DNA of 64,000 bases from a bacterium (GCA_030654225.1 JAURXY010000003.1:16056-80055), one strand, 5' to 3'; counted from the stretch's first letter, positions 34,112 to 51,839 are shown. Notes: generated from the letters alone by a model not told the origin. Numbers and translations: made by a program.

Positions 34112-34149
34112 CGATGCGAATCTACGAATGACATGCGAATCTACGAATA
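34112..34149 (+). promoter_or_regulatory. Dispersed element: tandem ATGCGAATCTACGAAT dimer
   Basis: gatgcgaatctacgaatgacatgcgaatctacgaataaa. The same 38-bp dimer recurs at 36516-36553 and 50651-50688, with variants at 43207-43245, 50046-50084 and 50205-50243. Confidence 0.6.
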
Positions 34150-35222
34150 AATTCAAAGGAATGATTAAAAATAAACTAAAAAATTCAGAAATTGTGAGCA
34201 GAAGCGACAAAAAATCGCTATTTTTAGGTTTATCAAACGATTTGCTTTCTGGGTTGAATCAACGATCTCGAGAAATAGTGCAGAAAAGATTTGGTCTTTT
34301 GAATGGAAACCGAGAAACACTGGATAAAATTGGGCGTCACTATGGGATAACAAGAGAAAGAGTGCGACAGATAATTTTTGAAGCGCTTCGAAATATCTCC
34401 GCCAAAACGGAACATGAAAGCTTTGTGAGCGCCGAAGAAAAAATAATTTTTACAATTAACCAAAACGATGGTATAATAAAAGTAAGTGAAATTATTGAAA
34501 AATTTAATTCCACTGGACAAGCGGAAGCGAACGCTATAAAGTTTTTTGCTCTTTGTTCTAAGAGAATTTTAGAAGCTGAAGAAAAAAATGTTTTTGAAAA
34601 GATTTGGACAGTTTCTGAAGATATACTTTCTGAGGTGAAGAAAACTTTAACTGAAGCTGAAAAAATTGTCAAAGAAGAAAAGAGGTTGTTTAGTGACGAG
34701 GAAATTATCGAGAAACTTTTTTCTGCTTTGCCACATTTGCCAAAAGGAAAAATTCTAAACTTTCTCAAAACCTCAGCTAACATCAAGAAAAATAAGTTTG
34801 GCAAGAGAGGCATGAAAAATTGGGCGGAAGTTTCCCCAAAAGGAACGCGAGAAAGGGTACATCTAGTTCTCAAGGAACACAAAAAACCCTTGCATTTTGT
34901 GGAAATCGCCAGTCTTATTGACAAATTTGAATTAGGCAAGAGAAAAGCTCATCCGCAAACTGTGCACAATGAATTAATCAAGGATGAAAGATTCGTTTTG
35001 ATTGGAAGAGGAATCTATGCACTCCGCGAATGGGGATATTCTGAAGGGACAATTCAGGAAGTGATCAAGAGTATTTTGAAGGAAAAGAAAAAACCTCTGA
35101 AAAAAGAAGAGATAATTGAAGAAGTTTTGAGAATTCGAAAAGTAAAAAAAACTACGATTAGTATCAATTTGAATAATGCTAAAATTTTTGAGAGAAAAAA
35201 CGAGACTTATACTATAAAATAA
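34128..35222 (+). CDS. Sigma-70 region-4 (HTH) domain protein with uncharacterised C-terminal domain
   Basis: LSGLNQRSREIVQKRFGLLNGNRETLDKIGRHYGITRERVRQIIFEALRNI matches sigma-70 region 4.2. The start is probably the MIKNK ATG at 34161. About 250 further aa have no recognisable motif. Confidence 0.55.
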   Translation: MTCESTNKFKGMIKNKLKNSEIVSRSDKKSLFLGLSNDLLSGLNQRSREIVQKRFGLLNGNRETLDKIGRHYGITRERVRQIIFEALRNISAKTEHESFVSAEEKIIFTINQNDGIIKVSEIIEKFNSTGQAEANAIKFFALCSKRILEAEEKNVFEKIWTVSEDILSEVKKTLTEAEKIVKEEKRLFSDEEIIEKLFSALPHLPKGKILNFLKTSANIKKNKFGKRGMKNWAEVSPKGTRERVHLVLKEHKKPLHFVEIASLIDKFELGKRKAHPQTVHNELIKDERFVLIGRGIYALREWGYSEGTIQEVIKSILKEKKKPLKKEEIIEEVLRIRKVKKTTISINLNNAKIFERKNETYTIK

Positions 35223-35240
35223 AAATTTCATTTTAATGTC

Positions 35241-36512
35241 ATGAACAACGCTTCGGACATCTTCGCAATATTTGTAGCCTTGTGGCAAGCCATCAGTTTT
35301 TTTTGGTGGATTATATTGCCGATAATGTTTTGGTATATTTTCAAAATTATTTGGAAAGACTTCACTCTTGTCAAATCTGTTATTTCTTGGCGAAGGCTTC
35401 AGCAGTGGACATTTGTGGAGATAATTCCTCCACGAGAGATTGAAAAAGGTCCCAAAATGATGGAAACTATTTTTTCCAGTATGGCTGGAGTCTTGTCGAC
35501 ATACAACACTTTTGATGAATATTTAAAAGGAGCTTGGGAACACGACCGTTTTAGTTTGGAAATTGTGGGAGAAGAAGGAAAGCTCCATTTCTATATCCGC
35601 ACGCAAAAAAGATTTTTGGGACTTGTGGAAGCTAATATCTATGCACAATATCCAGACGCAGAAGTTTTGGAGGTGCCCGACTATACGGCAAATTTTCCGA
35701 AAATTATTCCCAACAAAGATTGGGATCTTTGGGGGACTGATTTTGAATTTGTAGCCAAAGGTCCGATTCCAATTAAGACTTATGACAGATTTGAAGAAAC
35801 TGTTTCAGGAGAAATGAATGATCCAATGTCGGCTATTGCGGAAATAATCGGATCGCTTGGTCCTGGGCAGCACATTTGGCTTCAATACGTTTTGCAACCC
35901 TTGCCAGAGCCAGAAGCAAAAAAGAAAGAGCATATGGATGTGTTAAAAAAACTCAAAGGAGAAAAAGTGGTTGAGGTAATGGGACTTGGCGGACATCTGA
36001 TAGACGTTTTTTCTAATTTAACCAAGGGCTTGTCGGCTCCCGTAGAATTTGCAGCAGCAAAAAAAGAAGAATTGGGGCCATTGGAATTTCGACTTTCTCC
36101 GGGGGAAAAAGATCTTTTGAAAGCTACTGAAGAAAATCTAGGGAGAAATCTTTTCAAAACAAAAATGCGCTATATTTATTTGGCAAAAAAAGATAGTTGG
36201 GATGGATCATATAAAACTTCTTTTATCGGGGCATTGAAACAATTTAATGATTTGAATTTTAATCAGTTTAAGCCGGAAGATATTTCTAAAACTTATGGAA
36301 AAATATTTTTTACTGAGCCAAGAGCTAATATAAGGAAAAGAAAACTTCTGAATCGCTATAGATTTCGTAATATGGATGGAGTGAATATGATTTTTTCTAC
36401 CAAAGAATTGGCGACAGTGTTTCATTTCCCTGATATGGGAGTAAAATCACCTGCGGTACAAAGAACTGCGGGAAGATTGGGTAGTGCGCCGGCTAATTTA
36501 CCAATAGAATAA
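35241..36512 (+). CDS. Hypothetical membrane-anchored protein (2 N-terminal TM helices)
   Basis: 423 aa, N-terminal FAIFVALWQAISFFWWIILPIMFWYIF then a soluble domain. No recognised motif. Located immediately upstream of the VirD4-like ATPase. Confidence 0.45.
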   Translation: MNNASDIFAIFVALWQAISFFWWIILPIMFWYIFKIIWKDFTLVKSVISWRRLQQWTFVEIIPPREIEKGPKMMETIFSSMAGVLSTYNTFDEYLKGAWEHDRFSLEIVGEEGKLHFYIRTQKRFLGLVEANIYAQYPDAEVLEVPDYTANFPKIIPNKDWDLWGTDFEFVAKGPIPIKTYDRFEETVSGEMNDPMSAIAEIIGSLGPGQHIWLQYVLQPLPEPEAKKKEHMDVLKKLKGEKVVEVMGLGGHLIDVFSNLTKGLSAPVEFAAAKKEELGPLEFRLSPGEKDLLKATEENLGRNLFKTKMRYIYLAKKDSWDGSYKTSFIGALKQFNDLNFNQFKPEDISKTYGKIFFTEPRANIRKRKLLNRYRFRNMDGVNMIFSTKELATVFHFPDMGVKSPAVQRTAGRLGSAPANLPIE

Positions 36513-36515
36513 ACC

Positions 36516-36553
36516 GATGCGAATCTACGAATTTAATGCGAATCTACGAACAA
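36516..36553 (+). promoter_or_regulatory. Dispersed element: tandem ATGCGAATCTACGAA dimer
   Basis: gatgcgaatctacgaatttaatgcgaatctacgaacaa, 35 nt upstream of the ATPase start codon. Confidence 0.6.
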
Positions 36554-36587
36554 AATACGAAAAATTTTATTAATTACAAAAATTACA

Positions 36588-38450
36588 ATGGGTGATATTA
36601 ACTTATTTGCTAAAACTAATTTTAGGAATCAAGAAAGAAGTTTTGGGATAAAAACAGATGACCGTAGGCGTCATATGTATGTGATTGGAAAGACTGGAAT
36701 GGGAAAATCTAACATGTTGGAAAACATGGCGATTCAAGATATTCAAGCTGGCCGGGGAATGTGCTATGTTGATCCGCACGGTGAAGGCGCAGAAAAAATG
36801 CTTCGAGCTATTCCGGCTAATCGCATAAATGATGTGGTCTATTTCAATCCGGCGGACAAAGAATTTCCAATTGCTTTTAACATTCTGGAATCAGTCGAGG
36901 AGGACAAAAAACATTTGGTGGCTTCTGGCATGATGGGAGTTTTCAAAAAAATCTGGCCAGATGTTTGGAGTCCAAGAATGGAATATATTTTGAACAATAC
37001 GATTTTGGCACTACTAGATTATCCTGGTTCGACAATGCTTGGAGTGAATCGAATGATGAGTGACAAAGATTATAGAAAAAGAGTTTATCCAAAGATAAAA
37101 GATCCGGTGGTGAAATCTTTTTGGCTGAATGAATTTGATAAATGGGAAGATAAATTCAGAAAAGAAGCCGTAGCGGCTATTCAAAACAAAGTGGGACAAT
37201 TTTTGTCATCTTTTGTCATTCGTCATATCGTAGGGCAACCAAAATCTTCCATTGATATGCGAGATATTATGGATAATGAGAAAATTTTAATTGTTAATCT
37301 TTCTAAGGGGAGAATTGGAGAGGATGCCATGAGACTTTTGGGCGGAATGATTGTGACTAAAATTCAGTTGGCGGCAATGGGACGAGTAGAAATTCCAGAA
37401 AATGAAAGAAAAGATTTTTTTCTTTATGTGGATGAATTTCAAAATTTCGCCACTGAATCTTTTGCTAATATTTTGTCCGAAGCTAGAAAATATCGTTTAG
37501 CTTTAATTTTAGCGCATCAATATGTCAATCAGTTGATTTTTGATGGCAATACCACAGTGCGAGATGCCATTTTTGGCAACGTTGGAACAATCGTTTCTTT
37601 TCGCGTTGGAGCGGAAGATGCTGAGGCTTTGGAAAAAGAATTCGATCCTGTTTTTTTAATGAACGATATTGTGAATCTTTCCAAATATCAAATGTATTTG
37701 AAGCTCATGATCGATGGTATTGCCGGAGATGCTTTCAGCGCTACTTCTCTTCCGCCGATAAGTCTAGCTGATACTGAAAATAATGAAGGAAAGGCAATAG
37801 CTGTTTCGCGTGAACGCTATGGAAAATCCAGAAAAGAAGTGGAAGAAAAAATTGCGCGTTGGAGCGGAATGTTTGATTTTGAAGAATTTGAAAATGAAGG
37901 AGGCGGAGAAAAGGTTGACACGGAAAAGCCTAAAGAAAAAAATATTATTATTCCTAATCCACAAGCGAAAAAATCAAGATTAAATAACGTAGAAAGAGAT
38001 AGTAATAGTATAAAAAATGAGGCAGTGATTAAGGCTGTAATTCCAGTTGAAAAAATTATTAACACTGAAATTAAGGAAGAGAAAAAAATGTACGACGCCG
38101 TTTGTAGTAATTGTGATGAAAAAATTCAAGTGCCATTTGCGCCTGATCCGAAACGACCAACTTTTTGCAAGGAATGTCTCAAGGAATATCAAAGAGCCAG
38201 AGCGGTAAATCAAAAAGAAAAAGAAGAAAAGCAAAGTTATGTAGCGAAAAGAGAGATTACTCCGAAATATTCGCGAGATGAAGAGAGACAGCAAAATTCA
38301 AAACCGGATGTGATTGTTTCCTGCGACAAGCCGATGAGTCTTTCTCAAATGTCGCATATTGCACCCAAAAAATTCAAGTCTCTTCGAAAAAAATCGGAAG
38401 TTAATTTAGCTGACGTGAGAAATTTGATAAACCAAACAAAAAATAATTAA
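36588..38450 (+). CDS. AAA-like ATPase of the TraD/TraG/VirD4 (type IV coupling protein, DUF87-like) family with C-terminal zinc ribbon
   Basis: Walker A HMYVIGKTGMGKSN, Walker B FFLYVDEFQNF, and the RLALILAHQ motif characteristic of the TraG/VirD4 C-terminal domain. C-terminal CSNCDEKIQ...CKEC zinc ribbon. No N-terminal TM region. Confidence 0.6.
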   Translation: MGDINLFAKTNFRNQERSFGIKTDDRRRHMYVIGKTGMGKSNMLENMAIQDIQAGRGMCYVDPHGEGAEKMLRAIPANRINDVVYFNPADKEFPIAFNILESVEEDKKHLVASGMMGVFKKIWPDVWSPRMEYILNNTILALLDYPGSTMLGVNRMMSDKDYRKRVYPKIKDPVVKSFWLNEFDKWEDKFRKEAVAAIQNKVGQFLSSFVIRHIVGQPKSSIDMRDIMDNEKILIVNLSKGRIGEDAMRLLGGMIVTKIQLAAMGRVEIPENERKDFFLYVDEFQNFATESFANILSEARKYRLALILAHQYVNQLIFDGNTTVRDAIFGNVGTIVSFRVGAEDAEALEKEFDPVFLMNDIVNLSKYQMYLKLMIDGIAGDAFSATSLPPISLADTENNEGKAIAVSRERYGKSRKEVEEKIARWSGMFDFEEFENEGGGEKVDTEKPKEKNIIIPNPQAKKSRLNNVERDSNSIKNEAVIKAVIPVEKIINTEIKEEKKMYDAVCSNCDEKIQVPFAPDPKRPTFCKECLKEYQRARAVNQKEKEEKQSYVAKREITPKYSRDEERQQNSKPDVIVSCDKPMSLSQMSHIAPKKFKSLRKKSEVNLADVRNLINQTKNN

Positions 38451-38456
38451 GGAAAA

Positions 38457-39530
38457 ATGATAAAAAATGGAAAAAAAGTATTGTTAGGCATGTCAGGCGG
38501 TGTCGATTCCTGTGTGTCAGCAGCCCTGCTTAAAAAGCAGGGTTTTGATGTTAGGGGAATATATTTACAAATGTGGAAAGTTGATGGAGAAAAGAGTAAT
38601 GCAAAAGCAATTAAGGATGCGCAAAAAATTGCCAAAATTTTGGATATCCCGTTGGAAATTATGGATGTACGAAAAAAATTCAAAAAAGAAGTGGCAGGAT
38701 ATTTTTTGAAAGAATATTTGGCGGGACGCACGCCTAATCCGTGTATTTTTTGCAATGAAAATTTGAAATTTAAAACGTTGTTTGAAATGGCGAATAAACT
38801 AAAAATTGACTACATTGCCACTGGCCATTATGCAAGAATCATGAAGCATGAAACATGTAGCATGAAGCAGAAGAAATATAAATTATTAGAAGCGAAAGAT
38901 AGAAATAAGGATCAGTCATATTTTCTATATCGTCTGAAACAAAAGCAGTTGGCCAGAATTATTTTTCCTCTGGGAGAAATAGAAAAAACTGAAACGAGAA
39001 AATTGGCCAAGAAGTTTGGTCTGCCGGTTTTTGACAAAGCGGAATCGCAAGACATTTGTTTTTTGGCAAATATGTCAGTCGAGGAATTTTTGACGAAAAA
39101 TATGAAATTGAAAAAAGGGAAAATAATTGATACGAGCAGGCAAGTTATCGGAGAGCATCTGGGACTTCCTCTCTACACACTTGGTCAACGCAAGGGAATA
39201 AATATCGGTGGAACAGGGCCGTATTATGTGACAAAAAAAGATGTTAAAAAAAATTGTATAATTGTGACTAACAAAAAAGAGGATTTGTCTTTATTCTCTA
39301 AATTTGTTAATCTAGAGGAGTTAAATTGGATTTTGGCTGTGCCTAAATTTCCGGCCAAAGTTTTAGCGAGAATTAGATATCGAAGTTCTCTAATTCCAGC
39401 GGTGATAAAAAAACAAAAAAATGGATGCCGGGTTGTTTTTGATGAGATTCAGCGCGCAGTGACGCCTGGGCAATCAATTGTGTTTTATAATAAAAAATCA
39501 GAAATTTTAGGTGGGGGAATAATAAAATAA
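38457..39530 (+). CDS. mnmA: tRNA-specific 2-thiouridylase
   Basis: PP-loop VLLGMSGGVDSCVSAALL...IYLQMW and conserved catalytic Cys residues. 357 aa. Confidence 0.9.
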   Translation: MIKNGKKVLLGMSGGVDSCVSAALLKKQGFDVRGIYLQMWKVDGEKSNAKAIKDAQKIAKILDIPLEIMDVRKKFKKEVAGYFLKEYLAGRTPNPCIFCNENLKFKTLFEMANKLKIDYIATGHYARIMKHETCSMKQKKYKLLEAKDRNKDQSYFLYRLKQKQLARIIFPLGEIEKTETRKLAKKFGLPVFDKAESQDICFLANMSVEEFLTKNMKLKKGKIIDTSRQVIGEHLGLPLYTLGQRKGINIGGTGPYYVTKKDVKKNCIIVTNKKEDLSLFSKFVNLEELNWILAVPKFPAKVLARIRYRSSLIPAVIKKQKNGCRVVFDEIQRAVTPGQSIVFYNKKSEILGGGIIK

Positions 39531-39539
39531 TAAAAATTT

Positions 39540-39809
39540 ATGTACGGAAATAATGATTTGAGCGATGAAGATAAAAAAAGGCAACTAAATGCTTTAAATA
39601 TGCAACTGAGCATGCTTGACAGTGATCAGAAGAAATTTTCCAATGAAAAAAATATTTTGGAAGCGGAAATTAGAAAAATCAAGATGAATGGTGAAAGACT
39701 GCGCATTGATTTAAGTGAAAAACAAAAAAGATTTGAAACGGTGAATTTTCAATTTTCGCAAAATGAAGATGAGATAAAGAGACTAAAAAGAAAATTAACC
39801 TCATTATAA
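39540..39809 (+). CDS. Hypothetical coiled-coil protein
   Basis: 89 aa, highly charged heptad-like sequence. No motif. Confidence 0.3.
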   Translation: MYGNNDLSDEDKKRQLNALNMQLSMLDSDQKKFSNEKNILEAEIRKIKMNGERLRIDLSEKQKRFETVNFQFSQNEDEIKRLKRKLTSL

Positions 39810-39890
39810 TTTTTAATTCACCCTGTTAAGTAATTTTTTATTAAAAAATTAATTTTGCAAAGCAAAATTTACTAAACAGGGTAAAAAAAT

Positions 39891-40145
39891 ATGATATCAA
39901 ATTTAACGAACATCGTGATCTCATCTATTAGTAATCAAAAAGAAGAAATTGCTGAAAAATTTAACAATTATGAAAGTAAAGTGAAGGATATTGAAAGAGA
40001 AATAAACAACGAAAAAGTAGATGTTTCTAACAGAGAAGAAATACTTGCAAAAGCTATGGGTATGCTGGAAGAATTGTTTGGCTCTTATGTAACGAATGAT
40101 AATTACAGAAAAATAAAAACAGAACTTGGTTATAAGATAAGGTAA
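39891..40145 (+). CDS. Hypothetical coiled-coil protein
   Basis: 84 aa, charged. No motif. Confidence 0.3.
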   Translation: MISNLTNIVISSISNQKEEIAEKFNNYESKVKDIEREINNEKVDVSNREEILAKAMGMLEELFGSYVTNDNYRKIKTELGYKIR

Positions 40146-40150
40146 TCTTT

Positions 40151-42118
40151 ATGACAGCCAACGAATTACGAACAAAATATTTGGAATTTTTCAAACAACG
40201 GGGACATCAGATTGTGCCAAGTGGTTCTTTGATTCCGGAAAATGATCCTACGACGCTTTTTACGGGTTCGGGAATGCAACCGATGATTCCCTATCTTATG
40301 GGAGAAAAGCATCCTTTGGGAGGTAGAATTGCTGATTCACAAAAAAGTTTTCGTTCGGGAGACATCGAAGAAGTGGGCGACAATCGTCATACTACTTTTT
40401 TCGAAATGTTGGGGAATTGGTCGTTGGGAGATTATTTCAAAAAAGAACAAATTGGTTGGATGTTTGAATTTTTGACTAAAGAAATTGGCCTAGATCCGGA
40501 AAAAATTTATGTGACAGTTTTTCGTGGGGATGAAAGCTTGAAAATTCCTCGCGATGACGAATCGGTGGTTTATTGGCAAGAATTGTTCAAAAGCATAAAT
40601 ATCGAAGCTTTGGCAGTGGACAATGCGGAGATTGGCGGAATGCAAAATGGGCGAATTTTCTATTATCCAGTGGAAAAAAATTGGTGGAGTCGCGCCGGCG
40701 TGCCGAACAATATGCCACTTGGAGAACCAGGAGGACCGGATAGCGAAATGTTTTGGGATTTTGGAGCGGAACTGAAAATTCACGAAAATTCGCAATGGAG
40801 AAATCAACAATGTCATGTTAATTGTGATTGTGGGAGATTTTTGGAAATCGGAAATAATGTTTTTATGCAATATATCAAAACTCAAACTGGTTTCGAACTT
40901 TTGAAACAACAAAATGTTGATTTTGGCGGAGGACTAGAAAGAATTTTGGCGGCGACAAATGGCAATCCAGATATATTCCTCACGGATATTTTTGCAAAAG
41001 CTAAAGCGGAAATTGAAAAATTATCTGGGAAAAAATATGAAGATAACAGGGAAGCTTTTCGGGTGATTTTGGATCATCTTCGCGCGGCGACATTCTTGAT
41101 TGCTGATGGCGCCTATCCTAGCAACAAAGATCAAGGATATTTTGTGCGACGGCTAATTCGCCGAGCAGTGCGATTTGCGCATAAATTAGGAATAGAAAAA
41201 AACTTTTGTTCTGATATCGCTAAAATTTATATCCAATATTATCAAGGTGCCTATCCTGATTTATTAGAGAAATCAGAAAAGATTTTAGAAGAGTTGGAAA
41301 AAGAGGAGGATAAATTTAGGAGGACTTTTGCTAAAGGAGAGAAAATTCAGGACAAAGAAACTCAGCAACTTTATTATGATCTTATTCTTAAGGAAAAAGC
41401 TTTGCATGCAGGATTATCTGATGAAGAGGTGATTAATTTATTGAAAGATAAGGGCATACCAACTAGCGCTATTAATTTATCTGCTGAAATAGCATTTAAT
41501 TTGGAGACGACACATGGTTATTTTCATGATTTATTCTTTGATAATTTGAAAGAGGAAATACCAGGTGCAAACAAAAAAATTAACAATATAAATAAAAAAT
41601 TTGAAGAAAAACTTGAAAAACATCAAGAACTTTCTCGTACTGCTTCAGCTGGGAAATTCAAGGGTGGATTAGCTGATCACAGTGAAAAAATAACGGCGCT
41701 TCACACGGCGACGCATTTGATGCTGGCGGGACTACGAAAAGTTCTCGGGGAAAATGTTCATCAAAAAGGATCAAACATCACAGAGGAACGAATTCGTTTT
41801 GATTTTTCGCATTCCGACAAAATGACGGATGAGCAAAAAAAAGCCGTCGAGGATTATGTGAACGAAGCGATTAATTCTAAGACTGATGTCGTGATGGAAG
41901 AAATGACGCTTTCCGAAGCGAGAGAGAAGGGCGCCGAAGGGGCATTTGAAAATAAATATGGTGAGCGAGTGAAAGTATATTCAATCTTTGGATTTTCCAA
42001 TGAGATTTGTGGCGGTCCGCATGTCCGAAACACCGGCGATATCGAAGGCGTTTTCAAAATCACAAAAGAAGAAAGTTCTTCTACTGGAGTGCGCAGAATC
42101 AAAGCAATTATCTCCTAA
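40151..42118 (+). CDS. alaS: Alanyl-tRNA synthetase (short form lacking the C-terminal C-Ala/DHHA1 region)
   Basis: Class II catalytic core (FFKQRGHQIVPSGSLIPENDPTTLFTGSGMQ), editing domain HxxxH (HTATHLM) and CGGPHV. Only 655 aa, versus about 870 for canonical AlaRS. Confidence 0.9.
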   Translation: MTANELRTKYLEFFKQRGHQIVPSGSLIPENDPTTLFTGSGMQPMIPYLMGEKHPLGGRIADSQKSFRSGDIEEVGDNRHTTFFEMLGNWSLGDYFKKEQIGWMFEFLTKEIGLDPEKIYVTVFRGDESLKIPRDDESVVYWQELFKSINIEALAVDNAEIGGMQNGRIFYYPVEKNWWSRAGVPNNMPLGEPGGPDSEMFWDFGAELKIHENSQWRNQQCHVNCDCGRFLEIGNNVFMQYIKTQTGFELLKQQNVDFGGGLERILAATNGNPDIFLTDIFAKAKAEIEKLSGKKYEDNREAFRVILDHLRAATFLIADGAYPSNKDQGYFVRRLIRRAVRFAHKLGIEKNFCSDIAKIYIQYYQGAYPDLLEKSEKILEELEKEEDKFRRTFAKGEKIQDKETQQLYYDLILKEKALHAGLSDEEVINLLKDKGIPTSAINLSAEIAFNLETTHGYFHDLFFDNLKEEIPGANKKINNINKKFEEKLEKHQELSRTASAGKFKGGLADHSEKITALHTATHLMLAGLRKVLGENVHQKGSNITEERIRFDFSHSDKMTDEQKKAVEDYVNEAINSKTDVVMEEMTLSEAREKGAEGAFENKYGERVKVYSIFGFSNEICGGPHVRNTGDIEGVFKITKEESSSTGVRRIKAIIS

Positions 42119-42185
42119 AGCGAAGCTTTAGGAAAAAGGCTTAAAATAGGGCAAAATCGGCTCTATTTTTTTGTGTGGGCAAAAA

Positions 42186-43100: not shown

Positions 43101-43110
43101 GGATTCGATT

Positions 43111-43150
43111 AAGAGGGCTCGCGTTGTAGTATCGCGCGAGCCCTCTTTTT
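43111..43150 (+). terminator. Rho-independent terminator
   Basis: GC-rich 13-bp stem aagagggctcgcg/cgcgagccctctt followed by a T-run. Confidence 0.7.
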
Positions 43151-43206
43151 GCGTCTCAATTCTTGCAAACAACTAATAATAATGCTAAATTTAGGATAAT
43201 AGTAGT

Positions 43207-43245
43207 GATGCGCTTGCCTGCCGGTAGGCAGGAATCTACGAATAT
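43207..43245 (+). promoter_or_regulatory. Dispersed ATGCG/AATCTACGAAT element interrupted by a 20-bp perfect hairpin
   Basis: gatgcg-[cttgcctgccggtaggcagg]-aatctacgaatat. The hairpin cctgcc/ggcagg is inserted between the motif halves. Located 20 nt upstream of the 43266 gene. Confidence 0.5.
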
Positions 43246-43265
43246 AATTCTAAGAACTAAAAAAT

Positions 43266-43607
43266 ATGAAAATAGTTGAAGAAAAAATAACTTTGGAAGA
43301 GCTGAAGGAGATGTCTGGAAAAATGTTTGGAAATTTGGTGAAAGCGGTGGTGGATATTGAAAAAGAAATTATGGTTGTGGATGCTGGTTTGCATGCTGAT
43401 GAAGAGGCATTACTTTTGGAAAATGGTTCCGAGCAGAAAAACCTTTGGGGAATAAATCTTTATCCAGAAATGACGGGAGAGGACTTTGTGGAATTTGATT
43501 CAATGATAAACTTGCGTCCATCACAAAATAATCGCAGTCGGGGAGTTGATGACACAGAAATTCAAAAGAAAATAATACAAATAGTTGATAAATTAGTAAA
43601 AAAATAA
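43266..43607 (+). CDS. Hypothetical protein
   Basis: 113 aa acidic protein. No motif. Confidence 0.45.
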   Translation: MKIVEEKITLEELKEMSGKMFGNLVKAVVDIEKEIMVVDAGLHADEEALLLENGSEQKNLWGINLYPEMTGEDFVEFDSMINLRPSQNNRSRGVDDTEIQKKIIQIVDKLVKK

Positions 43608-43613
43608 ATTAGC

Positions 43614-43940
43614 ATGCAACATACTGACCTAACAAACAATAGATGGCAAGAATTTTCATTTTTTGAACAAATGGCGAACGTCGGCAGTGAAGTTGAACGG
43701 GCGATAAAATGGAAAAACAAGGAAAATTTGGAATATAGCCGAATGGCTTTGGAACGAGCTTTGGAACTGCTTGATCTTACAATTTCTGATCCAAAAAATA
43801 AAAAAGGATTGAAAGAAATATTGCGCGTGCGAGAAGCTTTGGCGGATTATTTCGCGTTTAGCAACGAGTATAAATCAACGGATAAAAGTTGGCAAAATTA
43901 TTTCTACTCTTTTAATTTTGCAGCACGCTTAGGAATTTAA
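43614..43940 (+). CDS. Hypothetical protein
   Basis: 108 aa. No motif. Confidence 0.4.
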   Translation: MQHTDLTNNRWQEFSFFEQMANVGSEVERAIKWKNKENLEYSRMALERALELLDLTISDPKNKKGLKEILRVREALADYFAFSNEYKSTDKSWQNYFYSFNFAARLGI

Positions 43941-43960
43941 TAAAAATAAGATAAAATTTT

Positions 43961-45178
43961 ATGACAAAAGTTATTACTGATGAAAAAATGATTGACGAGG
44001 TTTTGGAAAGAGGGGTGGAGCAAATTTTTCCGGATAAAAAAACACTCAAAGAAAAATTGATGAGCGGAGAAAGAATCCGGCTGTATTGTGGCTATGATCC
44101 GACGGCGCCATCACTTCACATTGGAAACGCGGTGACAATCAACAAGCTTTCTCAATTCCAAAAACTTGGTCATGAAATTATTTTTCTCATAGGTGATTTT
44201 ACTTGCATGATTGGAGATCCGACGGATAAATTAGCTACGCGAAAAAAAATGACGCGCGAAGAAATTTTGGAAAATGCTAAAGGATATCAAAAACAAGCGA
44301 GCGGATATTTGAAGTTTGATGGAGAAAATCCAGCGCAGATTATGTATAACAGCGAATGGAATGACAAATTAACTTTCAAAGAACTAATTGAACTTTCTTC
44401 TAACTTTACGGTTCAGCAAATGATTCAGCGTGATATGTTTCAAAAAAGAATGGCAGAGGAAAAACCAATTTATTTGCATGAATTTCTCTATCCTTTGACG
44501 CAAGGTTATGATAGCGTGGTGATGAATGTGGATTTGGAAATTGGCGGGAACGATCAAATGTTTAATATGTTGGCTGGCAGAACTTTGCAAAAAAATATTA
44601 ATAACAAGGAAAAATTTGTTGTGACGCTAAAACTCTTGGCGGATGAGACTGGCAAGAAAATGGGCAAAAGTGAAGGCAACGCAGTTTTTTTGGATCAAGC
44701 TCCGCAGGATATGTATGGCGCAGTGATGAGTTGGACAGATGGAACAATCGCTGTGGGTTTTGAAATGGCGACCAATGTTTCAATGCAAGAAGTAAAAGAA
44801 GTTGAGGAAGCTTTGAAAGATGAAAAAAATAATCCGCGAGACTACAAAATGAAATTGGCTTATGAAATGGTGAAAATAAATTATGGTGAAGAAGCAGCCG
44901 ATAAAGCGCAGGAAAATTTTGTCAGGACTGTGCAGAAAAAAGAAGTGCCAGATGTTGTAGTGGAAGAAAATGGAAATAATGGAGAAAAGCTGATTGATTT
45001 TATAGTGCGAGCAAAATTAGCTTCAAGTAATGGTGATGCCAAAAGAAAAATTGAACAAGGTGGAGTTTCGATTGATGGGGAAATCGTGAAAGACATTCAA
45101 ATAAAAATTTCGAAAGATATGAATGGAAAAATTTTGAAAGTTGGCAAGAGAGAATTTCGAAAGATAATCGTGAAATAA
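43961..45178 (+). CDS. tyrS: Tyrosyl-tRNA synthetase
   Basis: HIGN (class I HIGH), KMGKS (KMSKS), and a C-terminal S4-like domain. 405 aa. Confidence 0.92.
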   Translation: MTKVITDEKMIDEVLERGVEQIFPDKKTLKEKLMSGERIRLYCGYDPTAPSLHIGNAVTINKLSQFQKLGHEIIFLIGDFTCMIGDPTDKLATRKKMTREEILENAKGYQKQASGYLKFDGENPAQIMYNSEWNDKLTFKELIELSSNFTVQQMIQRDMFQKRMAEEKPIYLHEFLYPLTQGYDSVVMNVDLEIGGNDQMFNMLAGRTLQKNINNKEKFVVTLKLLADETGKKMGKSEGNAVFLDQAPQDMYGAVMSWTDGTIAVGFEMATNVSMQEVKEVEEALKDEKNNPRDYKMKLAYEMVKINYGEEAADKAQENFVRTVQKKEVPDVVVEENGNNGEKLIDFIVRAKLASSNGDAKRKIEQGGVSIDGEIVKDIQIKISKDMNGKILKVGKREFRKIIVK

Positions 45179-45469
45179 TTGTATAATAGACAAGAAACCC
45201 CGCACCAATTTCGATAAGATTTTATTTTAAGAAATAGTCTTAATTGCGAATACGCCTACGGCTTGGATTTTAATAAAAAAATTGTTTGATATTAGAATTG
45301 GTGAGGGGTAAAGTTATCCACAGGTCTTGCATTATTTTCAAAAAACTGTAGAATTATTTTATTAATTAAATTAAATAAAAAGCTGGGCAGTATTTTTAGG
45401 TTTTTTTCGCTTCGCATTAGAATTGTTATGAATGTGAGGTTTACTGTCGGGCTAAATAAAAGGTAAGAG

Positions 45470-45913
45470 ATGGCAGAGAAAAAAAAATCAGTCGGCAAGA
45501 AAAGTGCCAAGACAATTAATTTTGGATTGCACCTCACTCTTGACGGCTACGGTGGAAATCCGGATAAGCTAAATGACGGGAATTTAGTGAAAAAAATTCT
45601 AGACGAGCTCCCGGGAAAAGTAGGCATGCATAAAATTTATGGACCAGTGACGATGGATTGTCCCGAATTCAACGAAAAGGATTCTGGGGGGCATAGTGGT
45701 TTTGTGATGATCGCAGAGAGTCACATTAGTTGCCACACTTTTCCGTGGCGGAAATTTGTGAGTATCGATGTGTACACTTGCGGAAGTTCAATGGACAAGA
45801 AGTTTATCGTGAACTATTTCAAAAAAGCGTTTGAACTCAAAAAAGTGGAATTGAACTTCATAAAACGCGGAACAAAATTTCCAGCCAAGGATTTGGTAGC
45901 GAAAGAAAAATAA
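45470..45913 (+). CDS. speH: S-adenosylmethionine decarboxylase proenzyme-like (SpeH/class 1B type)
   Basis: GHSGFVMIAESHISCHTFPWRKFVSIDVYTCG matches the AdoMetDC core (sG...laESHisiHTwPE...DiftCG, with the autoprocessing ES site). Confidence 0.7.
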   Translation: MAEKKKSVGKKSAKTINFGLHLTLDGYGGNPDKLNDGNLVKKILDELPGKVGMHKIYGPVTMDCPEFNEKDSGGHSGFVMIAESHISCHTFPWRKFVSIDVYTCGSSMDKKFIVNYFKKAFELKKVELNFIKRGTKFPAKDLVAKEK

Positions 45914-45929
45914 TCTTGAATATATAAAA

Positions 45930-45969
45930 AAGGCGAGGTCTTACTCAATGGAGTAGCCTCGCTTTTTTT
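45930..45969 (+). terminator. Rho-independent terminator after speH
   Basis: Stem ggcgagg...cctcgc followed by 7 T. Confidence 0.6.
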
Positions 45970-45995
45970 GTATGATGATACAGTTTTTTGAAATT

Positions 45996-46307
45996 TTAAA
46001 ATGGTAGCTCGACTAAACTCCCTTGCTCTTTCGCCCATTTGGCCATATATTCAAATTTCTTCTCCGATGTAGGTCCCAATGGGGTTGTTCTGGGTAAATT
46101 CATAGCCTCAGTTGGATTTTCTGAATACCCTATTTTTTGTTCGCGCAAAATCTCACGAAACACCCAACCCCACTTGTAATCGATTGAGTCCTGAGGAATT
46201 ACCCCTTCCATCTCCAGTTGATGAGTAAAATCGCTTAAATGACGCAATGCATACTTTTTCATGGTTGCCTCCTTATTGCAAATAATATAGGTTAATTTCC
46301 AGACCAC
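45996..46307 (-). CDS. Hypothetical protein
   Basis: 103 aa ORF. The likely start is the internal MKKYALRH (about 88 aa). No motif. Confidence 0.4.
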   Translation of the reverse strand: MVWKLTYIICNKEATMKKYALRHLSDFTHQLEMEGVIPQDSIDYKWGWVFREILREQKIGYSENPTEAMNLPRTTPLGPTSEKKFEYMAKWAKEQGSLVELPF

Positions 46308-46485
46308 ATTCCCTAAGAAAATTTATATAAATTGTTTCAACAATTATTTGTTAAGGAATAAACTACATTATCATAGATTTATTGTTCTGTCAAAACAAAT
46401 TTCGGGTATGGGAATATCGCTTTTTGATTTCTAAGATCTGTGGTATAATTATGGTAGTTAATAAAAACAAAATTATTTTTTTTCA

Positions 46486-47754
46486 ATGTCTATTTTTTCT
46501 AAAATTGCAGGATTAGGAAAGCCTTCTTCGGAATTTATCGTATCCTTGGATATTGGTACGGAAGTGGTCAAAGTTTTGGTTTTCAAAATTGATCCGGAAA
46601 CGGGAGCGGGAATAGTTCGTGGTGTGGGCAGATCGCGCCAAGGCTTGAAAGACATGCACAGCGGAGCCGTCTCTGATATTTCTGGCGTGATTGTCAATTG
46701 TCGAGAAGCCATTGCAATGGCGCAAAATATGGCCGGCGCGAAAAAAGTTGAAAAAGCGATTATCGGCATTGCGGGGGAATTGGTCAAAGGCACCACAACC
46801 ACAGTGCATTATGAAAGAATTAATCCGGAAATCAGAATTGATTTGCCAGAACTAAAAAACATCATTCAAAAAGTTCAAAGAAAAGCTTTTGATAGGATCA
46901 GAAGTCAGTTGTCTTGGGAAACAGGACACAGTGAAATAGAAATTGAGCTAATTAATGCGGTGATTGTGGATGTTAGAATTGATGGATACAAAGTTTCTAA
47001 TCCAGTCGGATTTCAAGGACGCGATGTTTCAATGTCTATTTTCAATGCTTATGCGCCAATGATGCATCTCGGAGCGCTCACTAAAATCGCAGAAGAACTT
47101 GATCTTAATCTTTTGAATATCGCAGCTGAGCCATATGCCGTAGCTCGCTCAATGGGCGTGGAAGATTCTTTGGATTTTAGTGCAATTTTCATCGACATTG
47201 GTGGCGGAACAACAGATGTTGCTGTGGTGCGAAATGGCGGACTAGAAGGCACGAAAATGTTTGGCTTGGGTGGACGAGCTTTCACTAAAAGATTAGCGCA
47301 AGAACTCAATATTGGTTTTGAAGAAGCAGAAATGCTCAAAATTAAATATGCCGAAGGAAAATTAGGGAGGGATGTGAGTGTGAAAATTGAAAAAATTCTT
47401 TCGGATGATTGCGATGTGTGGCTTCGCGGAATTGAATTAACCTTGTCGGAATTTTCTGAATCAGACATTTTGCCACATCGTTTTTTTCTGTGCGGAGGAG
47501 GTTCTGGACTGCCTGGGATAAAGAAATCTCTGATGAGTACGCACTGGAGAAAAAATTTGCCTTTTGCAAAATCAATTGAAGTTGGATATCTGCAACCAAA
47601 AGATGTGGTAAATATTATTGATGAAACAGGACAGCTCAAAGATCCACAAGACATCACACCAATGGGGCTAGCTAATTTGGCGTTAGATTTAGCCGGAGAA
47701 GAAAAAGTAATTGCCGGAATACTTCGGCGAACAGTGAAAATGATGCAGAAGTAA
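46486..47754 (+). CDS. Actin-fold ATPase, FtsA/PilM-like
   Basis: SLDIGTEVVKVLVF (phosphate-1) and FIDIGGGTTDVAVV (phosphate-2/adenosine motif), 422 aa. ftsA versus pilM was not resolved, and no ftsZ follows. Confidence 0.6.
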   Translation: MSIFSKIAGLGKPSSEFIVSLDIGTEVVKVLVFKIDPETGAGIVRGVGRSRQGLKDMHSGAVSDISGVIVNCREAIAMAQNMAGAKKVEKAIIGIAGELVKGTTTTVHYERINPEIRIDLPELKNIIQKVQRKAFDRIRSQLSWETGHSEIEIELINAVIVDVRIDGYKVSNPVGFQGRDVSMSIFNAYAPMMHLGALTKIAEELDLNLLNIAAEPYAVARSMGVEDSLDFSAIFIDIGGGTTDVAVVRNGGLEGTKMFGLGGRAFTKRLAQELNIGFEEAEMLKIKYAEGKLGRDVSVKIEKILSDDCDVWLRGIELTLSEFSESDILPHRFFLCGGGSGLPGIKKSLMSTHWRKNLPFAKSIEVGYLQPKDVVNIIDETGQLKDPQDITPMGLANLALDLAGEEKVIAGILRRTVKMMQK

Positions 47755-47775
47755 ATTTAAATAATATAAAAAATT

Positions 47776-49668
47776 ATGCACCAGACATTTTATATCGATA
47801 TTGATGAAGAAATAACTTCTATCGTAGAGAGACTCAAGAAAGCCCGAGCGAGTGAAATTATTATAGTCGCACCTAAAAGAGCGTTGCTTATTCAAAGCAT
47901 CGTGAATTTGCGCATTCTCAAAAAAGAAGCGGATGAAAATGATATTCAACTAATGATGGTGACTCAAGATAAGCTTGGGAAAATTCTCATCGAGAAAGCT
48001 GGAATTTTTGTTCAACAAAAAATGGATAATATTTCTGATGAGGAAATCAATCTTAATGAAGAAGATATGGCAGGCGCTCAGAATTATTCCAACGAAAATG
48101 AGATGAATGGAATACGGGAAAGTCAAAATCGACTAAGCAAGATTGGCTCAGAAAATTATTTTAGCGAAGAGGAAAAGGCGCAGTATTTGCAGGCTAATTT
48201 GGAAAAAAACAGAAAAATTAAGGTGATCAAGAAAGATGAACCAATACAAGAAAAATTAATTAACAAAGAGTTGGTATCTGGAGTGGGAAAGATTTCCGGA
48301 AAAAAAGGGATAAGAGTGAGTCTGGATATTTCTACTCGATCAAGTGTTGCTGAAGAGCCAGAAATTATTGAAAAAAGCAGTACGAAAGAAAATGATGGAA
48401 TACAGGAGAAAAAAATAGAGAATTTTTTCTTTCAAAAGAATGATTTTGAAAATAATTCAAGAAAGTCACATGCTGAAGAATTTGGAAATTATGATTTATC
48501 CAAAAAAGATCATAGGGGTTTTTTGATTTTTGGATTAATTTCATCTTTGGCAGTGCTGGCTATCATCGCTTATTTATTTTTGCCAAAAGCTACTTTGAAA
48601 ATTACTGCCAAAGTGAAAACTCAATCAGTTGATTCTAATATAACCGGTAGCATAACGGCCGTTTCTTCTGATTTTGAAAAAGAAATTATTCCAGCCAAGA
48701 TAGTTTCAGCTGAAAGTTCTATTACTGAAAATTTCAAGGCTTCTGGGGATAAATCAGTTTCTAACCAAAAATCGCGAGGTAAAATTACAATTTACAATGA
48801 ATATAACGCTAGTCCACAACCTCTCGTGGCAACAACTAGATTTCTAAGTAGCAACGGAAAAATTTTTAGATTAGTAACGGGAGTGACAATTCCTGGAATG
48901 GAAACGGTTAGGGGAGAAACAAAGCCAGGAACAGTGGAGGCAACCGTGGTTGCAGATACGGCAGGAGAAAGTTTCAATATCGGTCCAGATAAATTTTCAA
49001 TTCCCGGCTTTGAAGGTAGCGGAGCAGAGAAATATACTAAATTTTATGCTAAATCAGATACGGCAATGTCAGGCGGAGGAAGTGGAAATCAAACAGCTAA
49101 TTATATAACCGATAGTGATGTGACTTCCGCCAAAGCCAAGTCTCTCACAAAATTGAATGAAGAAATTAAAAATAAATTAAAAGAATCCGCGGGAGAAGAT
49201 GTGGTTATCTTGGACGACGCGACGCAAGGCGACGAACCAATCTATAAGTTGTCTAATTCAAGTGGAGACGTGGTGGATACGTTTCAAATTACTATGCAAA
49301 CAAAAGTTAAGGCGATTGTGGTCAGCAAAAAAGATCTAAATGAAATGGTGGCGAAAATGATTTCCAAGGCAGGCGATGGTAAGGCAGGTATAGATAGCGC
49401 TTCTATGAAGTTAGATTTTGGAAAATCCAGTGTTGATTTTTCGGCTGGAACCATTGATATAAAATTTCATGCCGTTGGCGAAATTATTCCAAATCTCAAT
49501 TTAGAAGCTATGAAAAAAGAGATTTTAGGAAAAAATAACGAGGATTTAACGGCTTATCTAAGTACATTTTCCGATATCAAGGATGCCAATGTGGAATATC
49601 GGCCGTCATTTATAAATAGTCGCATTCCGCAAATAGAAAGTCGAGTAGAGATAATACTTGACAAATAA
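47776..49668 (+). CDS. Hypothetical bitopic membrane protein (cytoplasmic N-domain, single TM, ~370-aa exported domain)
   Basis: 630 aa with a TM helix at FLIFGLISSLAVLAIIAYLFL. No motif. Directly downstream of the FtsA/PilM-like gene. Confidence 0.45.
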   Translation: MHQTFYIDIDEEITSIVERLKKARASEIIIVAPKRALLIQSIVNLRILKKEADENDIQLMMVTQDKLGKILIEKAGIFVQQKMDNISDEEINLNEEDMAGAQNYSNENEMNGIRESQNRLSKIGSENYFSEEEKAQYLQANLEKNRKIKVIKKDEPIQEKLINKELVSGVGKISGKKGIRVSLDISTRSSVAEEPEIIEKSSTKENDGIQEKKIENFFFQKNDFENNSRKSHAEEFGNYDLSKKDHRGFLIFGLISSLAVLAIIAYLFLPKATLKITAKVKTQSVDSNITGSITAVSSDFEKEIIPAKIVSAESSITENFKASGDKSVSNQKSRGKITIYNEYNASPQPLVATTRFLSSNGKIFRLVTGVTIPGMETVRGETKPGTVEATVVADTAGESFNIGPDKFSIPGFEGSGAEKYTKFYAKSDTAMSGGGSGNQTANYITDSDVTSAKAKSLTKLNEEIKNKLKESAGEDVVILDDATQGDEPIYKLSNSSGDVVDTFQITMQTKVKAIVVSKKDLNEMVAKMISKAGDGKAGIDSASMKLDFGKSSVDFSAGTIDIKFHAVGEIIPNLNLEAMKKEILGKNNEDLTAYLSTFSDIKDANVEYRPSFINSRIPQIESRVEIILDK

Positions 49669-49827
49669 TTGGGGAAGCGATATTATGGTAGGGAAGTTAA
49701 AAATAAAGTTTCAATATATAGAGGGAATTTTTCGGTTTTCAGGAATTTGGATTGATAGTTTAGTCCCAAGACACAAGTGAAATTTTTTCACTGGTCTTGC
49801 GAAATTCCGTCTATTTTTTGTTTTATA

Positions 49828-50046
49828 ATGAATAATAAAGAATTAGTTAAATTAGAAGGAGAAGTTGTGGAAAATTTGCCTAGCACAACGTTCAAGGTAA
49901 AATTGGATAATGGCCATGAAATCTTGGCTCATATTTCTGGAAGAATGCGAGTGAACTATATTCGTCTTATTCCAGGAGATAGAGTTATTGTTGAAATGAG
50001 TCCATACGACCTAACCAAAGGTAGAATTACTCAAAGATTAAAATAG
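49828..50046 (+). CDS. infA: Translation initiation factor IF-1
   Basis: [72 protein letters not shown] is the S1-like IF-1 fold. The start is the internal ATG of the 49777 ORF. Confidence 0.9.
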
Positions 50047-50084
50047 CATGCGAATAGCGCGCTACGAATGCGCCCATGCGAATG
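50046..50084 (+). promoter_or_regulatory. Dispersed-element variant ATGCGAAT-[AGCGCGCTACGAATGCGCCC]-ATGCGAAT (infA-rpmJ spacer)
   Basis: Read directly. Ends 8 nt before the rpmJ ATG. Confidence 0.5.
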
Positions 50085-50091
50085 AAATAAT

Positions 50092-50205
50092 ATGAAAGTA
50101 AGAGCATCAGTAAAAAAAATTTGTGATAAATGTAAAATTGTTAAAAGAAACAAAAAGATTTTTGTTATTTGTTCTAATCCAAAGCATAAACAACGTCAAG
50201 GATAG
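50092..50205 (+). CDS. rpmJ: 50S ribosomal protein L36
   Basis: Translates to [37 protein letters not shown] (37 aa, C-x2-C...C-x4-H zinc ribbon). Missing from the ORF track because it is under 60 aa. Confidence 0.85.
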
Positions 50206-50243
50206 CATGCGAATAGCGCACTACAAATGCGCCCATGCGAATT
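50205..50243 (+). promoter_or_regulatory. Dispersed-element variant ATGCGAAT-[AGCGCACTACAAATGCGCCC]-ATGCGAAT (rpmJ-rpsM spacer)
   Basis: Near-identical copy of 50046-50084. Confidence 0.5.
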
Positions 50244-50256
50244 TATAAAAACAATT

Positions 50257-50643
50257 ATGTTACGAATTTCCGGAGTTAATATTCCAGATGAAAAAAGAAT
50301 AGTGATTTCTCTAACCTATATATATGGGATAGGTAATGCTGTGGCAGCTAAAATTTTGAAAGAGCTTGGCATTTCTCCAGATAAAAGAACCAAAGATTTG
50401 AATGACGAAGAGCAAAATGCTATTCGAACTTACATTGAGAAAAAAATAAAATCTGAAGGAGAGCTTAAGCATGAAGTACGAAACAATATCAAGAGACTCA
50501 AGGAAATTGGTTGTTATCGCGGAACTCGTCATCAAAAAGGTTTGCCAACCAGAGGACAAAGAACTAAAACGAACAATCGAACTGTACGAGGCAATGTGAG
50601 ACGAACAATGGGATCTGGCCGAGTAAAGACTGAAAAGACTTAA
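50257..50643 (+). CDS. rpsM: 30S ribosomal protein S13
   Basis: [26 protein letters not shown]...[21 protein letters not shown]. The start is the internal ATG of the 50227 ORF. Confidence 0.92.
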
Positions 50644-50650
50644 AAAAGCG

Positions 50651-50688
50651 ATGCGAATCTACGAATGACATGCGAATCTACGAATTAT
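50651..50688 (+). promoter_or_regulatory. Dispersed element: tandem ATGCGAATCTACGAAT dimer (rpsM-rpsK spacer)
   Basis: atgcgaatctacgaatgacatgcgaatctacgaattat, identical to the copy at 34113-34149. Confidence 0.6.
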
Positions 50689-51825: not shown

Positions 51826-51839
51826 ATTAAAATAACAGA

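Follow-up and report, generated by a model that had tools for sequence, protein, structure and literature searches.

A probable mobile family of octamer-array repeats in the intercistronic spacers of Patescibacteria, associated with a GxxExxY nuclease gene

Introduction

Why should every spacer of the infA-rpmJ-rpsM-rpsK operon, and the upstream regions of several unrelated genes, carry a copy of the same short sequence? The question is raised by a 64,000-nt stretch of bacterial DNA (GCA_030654225.1 JAURXY010000003.1:16056-80055; hereafter the window; genome ~36% GC), in which six copies of an element built from CGAAT-containing octamers lie within 34111-50688. An earlier note, made from the sequence alone, proposed that the copies serve in RNA processing, in translational control as an operator, or as a gene-specific regulator site, and remarked that they also resemble a small mobile or repeat element. 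Here we show that the octamer arrays belong to a family that is multi-copy, found throughout the Patescibacteria (CPR, for candidate phyla radiation) and polymorphic at orthologous sites, and that they are the inverted ends of cassettes that carry a nuclease gene. We consider it probable that the family is mobile and selfish and exists in gene-carrying, gene-less and solo-arm forms, the gene-less one being similar to MITEs (miniature inverted-repeat transposable elements) and the window copies being solo arms. What stands from the earlier interpretation is the mobile or repeat element.

The element and its copies in the window

The 16-mer ATGCGAATCTACGAAT is matched six times in the window, once with a mismatch, against 0.07 matches expected, and none of 100 shuffles reaches this count. 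Exact matches start at 34114, 34133, 36517, 50651 and 50670, and the match at 36536 has one mismatch (..GAAC); together they form three dimers (34114/34133, 36517/36536 and 50651/50670), all on the + strand. With the GCG prefix and the GAC spacer included, the dimer reads GCGATGCGAATCTACGAATGACATGCGAATCTACGAAT and is identical at 38 of 38 nt between 34111-34148 and 50648-50685, whereas the one at 36517 has the spacer TTA in place of GAC. Counts of the single octamers are also above expectation: ATGCGAAT occurs 12 times, on the + strand only (4.4 expected), and CTACGAAT seven times (1.2 expected). The heptamer TRCGAAT was found 24 times on the + strand and once on the - strand.

The six copies (Table 1) sit within 1-3 nt of where the earlier note had placed them. 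All are intergenic, have the orientation of the downstream gene, and end 8-36 nt ahead of its start codon. Pfam-based gene calls bear out that the infA-rpmJ, rpmJ-rpsM and rpsM-rpsK spacers are each filled by a copy and that the remaining copies stand 5' of unrelated + strand genes, which encode a sigma70_r4/HARE-HTH protein, a VirD4-like ATPase and a DUF5674 protein. The two copies that follow infA and rpmJ differ from the dimers and have the general form ATGCGAAT-AGCGC(G/A)-CTAC(G/A)AAT-GCGCCC-ATGCGAAT (50048-50083 and 50207-50242), designated here as type 2; both arms start one base past the TAG stop of the respective gene.

The placement of the copies within 5' untranslated regions (UTRs) or intercistronic RNA was correct as well. 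The candidate sigma-70-type promoter just 5' of the first copy shows that this copy is transcribed as a leader. Since the copies lie in transcribed RNA, some side effect at the RNA level may exist. The dimers fold worse as RNA than their shuffles do (z = +1.3 to +1.6), in the variant copies only the small GC hairpins form, and an Rfam search gave no match to the copies even at E = 10. No exact record was found for the protein encoded at 43266-43607.

Table 1. Copies of the element and an associated promoter in the window
Feature	Position	Strand	Context
Sigma-70-type promoter TTGACA-16-TAGAAT, TG-extended	34070..34097	+	Outside the element
Type-1 solo arm: GCG and two ATGCGAATCTACGAAT, GAC between	34111..34148	+	5' UTR of the sigma70_r4/HARE-HTH gene (start 34164); begins 14 nt 3' of the TAGAAT promoter box
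Type-1 solo arm: ACCG and two 16-mers, spacer TTA, second ending GAAC	36513..36551	+	Directly 3' of the TAA that ends the 423-aa gene; precedes the VirD4-like gene by 36 nt
Single 16-mer split after ATGCG by a nested 20-nt mini-palindrome at 43213-43232 (CTTGCCTGCCGGTAGGCAGG; pairing CCUGCC-GGUA-GGCAGG)	43208..43243	+	5' of the DUF5674 gene; 3' of a terminator and a -10-like GATAAT
Type-2 arm: TAG(infA stop)-C-ATGCGAAT-AGCGCG-CTACGAAT-GCGCCC-ATGCGAAT	50044..50083	+	Ends 8 nt before the rpmJ start
Type-2 arm: TAG(rpmJ stop)-C-ATGCGAAT-AGCGCA-CTACAAAT-GCGCCC-ATGCGAAT	50203..50242	+	Ends 14 nt before the rpsM start
Type-1 solo arm	50648..50685	+	rpsM-rpsK spacer; ends 31 nt before the rpsK start

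Distribution and anatomy of the family in Patescibacteria

One genome per species was scanned with the exact pattern CGAATCTACGAAT-N0-12-ATGCGAAT, for which we estimate about 3.5 chance matches. The pattern was found in at least 117 stretches, nearly all of them from Patescibacteria. The matches listed come from Saccharibacteria, Microgenomates, Parcubacteria and other CPR phyla with GC contents of 35-58%, and among their lineages are Saccharibacteria, Roizman-, Moran-, Falkow-, Kerfeld-, Doudna-, Wolfe-, Yanofsky-, Peri- and Paceibacteria. A phage origin was rejected, as there was no match in 2.9 million viral contigs. An occurrence in DPANN archaea was rejected too: the contig labelled Pacearchaeota (L017, DAOSAR010000001.1) encodes bacterial RecO, ClpB, RlmN and GatB, and with this typically bacterial gene content its label is almost certainly wrong. 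For a locus labelled Gammaproteobacteria (L016; L038 and L071 are further examples of such labels), the L016 genes checked (RseP, GalU and kinases) do not discriminate.

The repeated unit is the octamer MTRCGAAT, or M-T(86%)-R-CGAAT, an 8-bp near-palindrome (ATTCGAAT-like) that occurs in direct and inverted orientation at a spacing of 8-11 bp; 8 nt is the commonest spacing, followed by 9 nt and then 10-11 nt, and the usual pairing of units is ATGCGAAT-CTACGAAT. About 92% of the matches listed are intergenic; 83 lie between co-directional, 9 between divergent and 1 between convergent genes. The genes adjoining the arrays are ordinary housekeeping genes, many of them for ribosomal proteins. Neither transposase families nor Y1 (PF01797) were found among the 25 commonest of the 115 Pfam families represented in 86 downstream neighbour proteins, a survey in which a single Y1 match could be missed.

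In the mRNA sense, a typical element runs from a stop codon through a few nucleotides, a CGAAT array, a loop, an ATTCG array and 0-15 nt to the ATG. This imperfect palindrome of 90-110 nt, occupying the spacer from stop to start, is the commonest class (61 spacers), and full palindromes fold at -30 to -60 kcal/mol. One-armed arrays were found in the sense orientation in 20 spacers and antisense in 17, the outer end of the arm being mostly toward the adjacent gene boundary. The claimed co-orientation with the downstream gene is therefore true of the six window copies and not of the family in general. The type-2 module is present in nine genomes. In L025 and L114 it combines with the reverse complement of the type-1 dimer into a composite palindrome, in which the module is the 5' arm and the dimer the 3' arm; both arm forms of the window belong to this one composite, as its two arms. 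L025 holds six alike elements within 8 kb, and their non-core parts and loops are also common to them.

Association with a GxxExxY nuclease gene

At locus L034, a 130-aa PD-(D/E)XK protein matching PF13366 (E = 8e-18) is encoded between histidine kinase and response regulator genes, and its gene is flanked by 53-nt arrays that are 94% mutually complementary. A local search for GxxExxY homologs identified L042, where the gene lies between sufS and sufU with arrays on both sides, L141, and L044, whose homolog is divergent and has a different inverted repeat on its flanks. A database search returned 188 close homologs. The best 120 of the 188 are 64-91% identical; among these, the source-named ones are nearly all 'GxxExxY protein [Patescibacteria]', and many are on contigs of 1-3 kb.

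Seven homologs were traced to contigs, and with those of L034 and L042 the number of independent insertion sites comes to eight. The gene lies between the histidine kinase and response regulator genes, between sufS and sufU, upstream of rplA, before the PPDK gene, between the DsbA and POR genes, between ligA and gatC, between recJ and rnhA, and, in one case, between unnamed genes. Arrays are present in 15 of the 16 spacers that flank the GxxExxY genes, in the form C(G/A)AAT upstream and ATT(C/T)G downstream, against 6 of 241 background spacers taken from CPR loci not chosen by motif (Fisher p = 1.2e-18). The terminal inverted arrays of the cassettes are 25-53 nt long and 76-95% complementary, and their outer ends read TATAAT(G/T)C(G/A)AAYC, with the TAA stop of the upstream gene falling inside this sequence.

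The motif, the PF13366 match and the structural model all place the associated protein among the predicted members of the PD-(D/E)XK superfamily. The candidate catalytic residues D69 and E79-x-K81 are invariant in 34 sequences, and the AlphaFold2 model, which is confident (predicted local distance difference test score, pLDDT, 90), has weak fold matches to Cas4 and lambda exonuclease. No sequence relative of the protein was found among the solved structures in the PDB, and no GxxExxY relatives were found on plasmids. The function of the family was listed as 'Unknown' in a 2012 survey of PD-(D/E)XK proteins (PMC3424549).

Two further observations concern the cassettes. Some GxxExxY proteins have C-terminal tails, for example NSHNS or SNASNEYSNASN (P0002, P0011, P0017, P0103 and P0106; L207:1386-1422), that are the translated downstream ATT(C/T)G array, so that the reading frame enters the repeat. 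The topA-dprA junction exists in three states, namely an 18-nt spacer in L204, a 175-nt hairpin in the window, and in L141 a GxxExxY-like gene adjoined by three CGAAT units. The hairpin in the window (32783-32957) is long and has 13-nt perfect ends, TAGGACTTACGCA...TGCGTAAGTCCTA.

Orthologous spacers in close relatives

The RpsM protein of the window recurs with 100% identity in a CPR genome from Rifle groundwater (LBSI01000010.1) and in eight metagenome contigs. These strains share 91-95% identity with the window in coding DNA; their three ribosomal-operon spacers are unalignable, whereas the 160-nt infA leader is as conserved as coding DNA and shows a compensatory change. The rpsM-rpsK spacer reads CTACGAAT-TACGAAT-TTACGAAT-GTACGAAT-ATACAAAT in L001 and has a mixed inverted CGAAT/ATTCG arrangement in L002, and one palindrome has lost or gained its centre between these two loci. 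The infA-rpmJ spacer measures 0-13 nt, 45 nt or 97 nt among the relatives, the rpmJ-rpsM spacer holds unrelated repeats in them, and spacer alleles reassort among the strains. The same units thus recur in relatives but are rearranged, their arrangement turning over far faster than the surroundings.

The copies at 34114 and 36517 were approached by a metagenome scan with the 423-aa protein encoded at 35241-36509; 80 syntenic loci were returned and 65 CPR loci were examined. The counterpart of the spacer at 36513-36587 is an empty 8 nt, TAA-taaaaaat-ATG, in L127 (protein 92% identical), a 95-nt full palindrome of CTAAT/CGAAT units in L204 (protein 87% identical), and only 2-20 nt in most of the 65 loci, a few of which have other arrays. 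Upstream of the sigma70_r4/HARE-HTH gene, the promoter TTGACA-16-TAGAAT is kept in L127, L204 and L141, and an unrelated 65-nt UTR with a small hairpin stands in place of the first copy; relative to these loci, the UTR and the first codons at 34114 have been replaced in the window. The differences at 34114 and 36517 are polymorphisms in which sequence has been inserted, deleted or replaced; they do not mark conserved control sites. Overall, orthologous spacers of close strains differ through gain, loss, resizing and exchange of the elements, which share transcripts with the genes on either side.

These comparisons bear on the control functions first proposed. Absence from orthologous positions in close relatives had been named beforehand as the result that would speak against them, and such absence was observed between close strains. 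As the arrays are missing or replaced at the orthologous spacers, the comparison does not support a role in RNA processing, as a translational operator or as a gene-specific regulator site. Covariation in relatives, which the earlier note proposed to look for, amounts to a single compensatory pair, and that in the type-2 stem only (GCGC:GCGC to GCAC:GTGC in L138).

A mobile family and its alternatives

From their sequences, the elements seem to take three forms: cassettes of ~0.5 kb with two inverted arrays around the 130-aa GxxExxY gene, situated between adjacent housekeeping genes; gene-less palindromes of 90-110 nt, in which a CGAAT array is followed by an ATTCG array; and single arms such as the window copies. 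We infer both a mechanism of mobility and a role for the nuclease in it. The octamer arrays would offer a trans-acting protein, in all likelihood the flanked nuclease, repeated binding sites at the ends; this protein would cut or copy the unit into new spacers just 3' of stop codons. Internal deletion of the cassettes would then produce the palindromes, and loss of one arm would leave solo arrays, among them the window copies. The latter are most likely dispensable passengers of mRNA and not required control sites.

Several observations weigh against this reading. A local homolog search found no GxxExxY nuclease gene in the window, and the six window copies are all one kind of arm. The flanks of 49 and of 9 palindromes contained neither a target-site duplication nor a recurrent dinucleotide, and the termini there are variable, with no constant terminus. 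Of 12 copies of the type-2 module, 11, from 5 of 6 genomes, share the direction of transcription, and convergent spacers are short of arrays relative to background (5 of 116 against 11.8% expected, p = 0.009); this bias and this depletion hint at a link with transcription or gene starts. Selfish DNA does not usually keep its exact sequence over a superphylum, and such conservation could reflect a role in the host. Finally, the nuclease could be a homing gene aimed at pre-existing palindromes, or mere cargo.

Two alternatives assign the arrays a function in the host. We think it unlikely that they are a cis-acting RNA element, whose CGAAU repeats or long hairpins would serve as processing sites (e.g., for RNase III), as stabilisers, or as translational operators bound by a conserved CPR RNA-binding protein. 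Such an element would agree with the position of every copy in transcribed sequence adjoining a gene start, with the compensatory change in the type-2 stem, with the strong folding of full palindromes, and with the type-2 co-orientation and convergent-spacer depletion; moreover, the hairpin at 43213-43232 keeps the 16-mer halves adjacent only when the strand folds. Yet the arrays are absent or replaced in the very relatives in which a true leader, that of infA, is conserved, and one-armed arrays point antisense almost as often as sense. In L026 the sense strand would have A-C mismatches, the G-U-tolerant strand is often antisense to genes, and in 34 (-,-) spacers the antisense strand is the stabler in 21 and the sense strand in 9. 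The poor folding of the window dimers and their lack of an Rfam match point the same way, and hairpins could form equally in single-stranded DNA. Duplex operator arrays for a CPR-wide DNA-binding protein, a global regulator or nucleoid protein modulating transcription of the neighbours (compare the tandem 8-bp met boxes bound by MetJ, or the omega repressor and its heptad arrays), appear to us quite improbable. The near-palindromic 8-bp unit, repeated directly and inversely at a spacing of 8-11 bp, suits duplex recognition, as does the independence of orientation, and the sequence is conserved over CPR phyla in association with gene starts. Against this, most copies are within operons, where a promoter would not fit, closely related strains show extreme turnover, most relatives lack a site at the same gene pair, and the 20-nt insertion at 43213 would disrupt a duplex site. 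No candidate regulator has been named, and binding-site convergence cannot account for the copying of whole elements, loops included, within a genome.

To two further alternatives we give little credence. That the arrays are a side product of slippage during replication and of template switches in AT-rich, repair-poor genomes, i.e., minisatellite-like arrays and quasi-palindromes formed with no machinery, is very improbable. Similar architecture does arise from other units in the window and its relatives (ACAGAAT/ATTCTGT, CAATGAA, AATTTCT and TTATAAC), and the palindrome centre that differs between L001 and L002 is what slippage could produce; but slippage alone cannot put the same 21-38-nt sequence into phylum-level lineages of such different GC content, nor can it account for the tight association with one nuclease gene family. 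We find it scarcely credible that the arrays are sequences like DNA uptake signals, accumulated by biased uptake and recombination. Competence machinery is near-universal in CPR bacteria, the motif is short, conserved in the clade, present in both orientations and often in inverted pairs between genes, and spacer alleles reassort by recombination. Uptake signals, however, are dispersed single sites and not clustered arrays, the arrays here are almost confined to intergenic DNA, and the link with a nuclease cassette would not be expected.

Beyond the preferred reading of a mobile repeat family, a broader proposal is possible, and we advance it tentatively, with more doubt than confidence. GxxExxY (PF13366) nucleases, a large family, may be the engines of an unrecognised class of mobile cassettes with octamer-array ends. 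Gene-less derivatives of these would have spread into operon spacers all over the Patescibacteria radiation and possibly, with other repeats, into other phyla; they would drive rapid turnover of the spacers and could have been recruited to punctuate operons. Neither Rfam nor the literature searched (on the motif, CPR repeats and GxxExxY) describes the family, and GxxExxY is mentioned there only as 'function unknown'. If the proposal is true, PF13366 proteins gain a testable function and a likely DNA substrate, and one repeat family over the whole radiation explains the hypervariable intercistronic spacers of these tiny genomes. It would also explain assembly breaks at such spacers, which should then not be read as conserved regulatory RNAs, and MTRCGAAT arrays would be a sequence marker for mis-binned CPR contigs such as the 'Pacearchaeota' contig L017.

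Comparison with known systems

The closest design is that of REP repeats (short for repetitive extragenic palindromic) and bacterial interspersed mosaic elements (BIMEs) of Enterobacteria and Pseudomonas with their REP-associated tyrosine transposases (RAYTs), together called the REPtron; MITEs such as the Correia elements also come near. The elements described here share with REP and BIME sequences their shortness, intergenic position, imperfectly palindromic form and high copy number; both lie mostly between co-directional genes, are transcribed along with them and contain the tetranucleotide GTAG/CTAC. A small nuclease-type gene between inverted repeats, far outnumbered by gene-less copies, is another common trait. 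The differences are in the nuclease family, the tandem-octamer arms, the lack of target duplications and the superphylum-wide range. The gene here appears to be a PD-(D/E)XK GxxExxY gene (PF13366), and that of RAYT is HUH/Y1 (IS200-like, PF01797). The arms here are AT-rich tandem arrays of 2-6 octamers, whereas a REP is one GC-rich hairpin of 20-40 nt; CTAC/GTAG is internal to every second unit here and a 5' GTAG tag in REP. The REP/RAYT range is a genus or a family, and solo direct arrays are common in the family described here.

The Correia elements of Neisseria are likewise ~100 nt long with terminal inverted repeats, are intergenic within operons, vary in presence or absence among strains, and form mRNA hairpins. 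Correia hairpins are substrates of RNase III. Small size, terminal inverted repeats and many copies (61 spacers, and six copies in L025) are what is seen here, but target-site duplications, of TA or any other sequence, and defined constant termini were not found, and the number and spacing of units vary. To our knowledge, octamer-array elements have no DDE transposase partner. Free-standing homing endonuclease genes (seg and mob of T4-like phages) resemble the cassettes in that a small nuclease gene is inserted between conserved genes, co-oriented with them and polymorphic among relatives, as at the eight insertion sites and the three-state topA-dprA junction; they differ in that the cassettes have long inverted repeat arrays and far commoner gene-less derivatives. 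The subterminal motifs of Ac/Ds and En/Spm and the end-binding sites of Tn7 and Mu also comprise several short direct or inverted motif copies that provide multiple protein-binding sites. The analogy is of design only, since those elements use DDE/hAT transposases and make target duplications.

Rejected candidates and other repeats

A number of other explanations of the copies were considered and rejected. The dimer could be translated as a mini-open reading frame, ATG-CGA-ATC-TAC-GAA-TGA (MRIYE*), but its stop needs the 3-nt spacer and is lost at 36517, and the arrays of relatives have no ATG. An alternative ribosome-binding site does not apply either: Shine-Dalgarno sequences are almost absent from the genes of the whole window, which have A/T-rich sequence 5' of their start codons, so that their lack is not specific to the copy-bearing genes. 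A classical or extracytoplasmic function (ECF)-type promoter, or a sigma-dependent pause, is unsuited to the hexamer geometry and to copies inside operons, and a T-loop mimic (U-R-C-G-A) would need a closing pair that is absent. No TA target-site duplication was seen in the palindrome flanks. A preference of the sense strand for RNA pairing was dismissed, for the stabler strand tracks the orientation of the element and not of the genes, and the search pattern biases the measure. A conserved cis-regulatory RNA, such as a ribosomal-protein leader or an Rfam family, would show conservation with covariation at orthologous positions, contrary to what was found. In TIGR-Tas arrays, each tandem unit holds two variable spacers delimited by box C/D motifs, and a tas (Nop-domain) gene lies alongside (PMC12045711; bioRxiv 10.64898/2026.09.09.750476). 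Here the copies are dispersed, there are no variable spacers, and no tas gene is nearby.

The 20-nt insertion in the copy that precedes the DUF5674 gene has the look of a tiny dispersed element in its own right. This mini-palindrome, C(C/T)TGCCTGCCGGTAGG(C/T)AGG, was also observed as a nested insertion at L025:~7790, L117:1778, and L092:3800-3835 and 6191; in L025 it is present in one of the six otherwise alike elements, after TGCG as in the window.

Other repeats of the window occupy comparable sites. The rpsD-rpoA spacer (51829-51913) contains ACAGAA(T) repeats followed by two TTCTGTGTCGTTCTG, a palindrome folding at -32.7 kcal/mol; this family is also present in the rpmJ-rpsM spacer of L002, and the rpsD-rpoA site of L001 is a TACGAA/TTCGTA palindrome. 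Tandem AATTTCT repeats (4.4 copies, 136-166) lie directly 5' of a start codon, and the same array is found in an unrelated CPR metagenome locus (L205) just 3' of the orthologous 423-aa gene; four copies of TTATAAC occupy the same kind of site in L198. On the 3' side of an 819-aa gene that ends at 11551, the segment 11552-11623 consists of 4.6 copies of CAATGAA and an imperfect inverted array (TCATTGA/TCTTTGA...); it folds at -16.9 kcal/mol and reaches the next ATG.

The infA leader (49669-49827), with a candidate promoter TTGACA-17-TATTAT at 49658-49686, is ~95% conserved in relatives. It contains a hairpin with a compensatory change (gacaC...Ggtc versus gacaG...Cgtc), has no Rfam match, and may be a structured regulatory leader. 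GC skew is positive across the whole window, and nearly all genes are on the + strand. The segment 34164-38450 encodes the sigma70_r4/HARE-HTH protein, the 423-aa protein, which has no Pfam match, and a VirD4/TrwB-like ATPase, and is syntenic in most of the 65 CPR loci. These three genes probably belong to the type IV secretion-like system of Patescibacteria that is the subject of PMC12102498.

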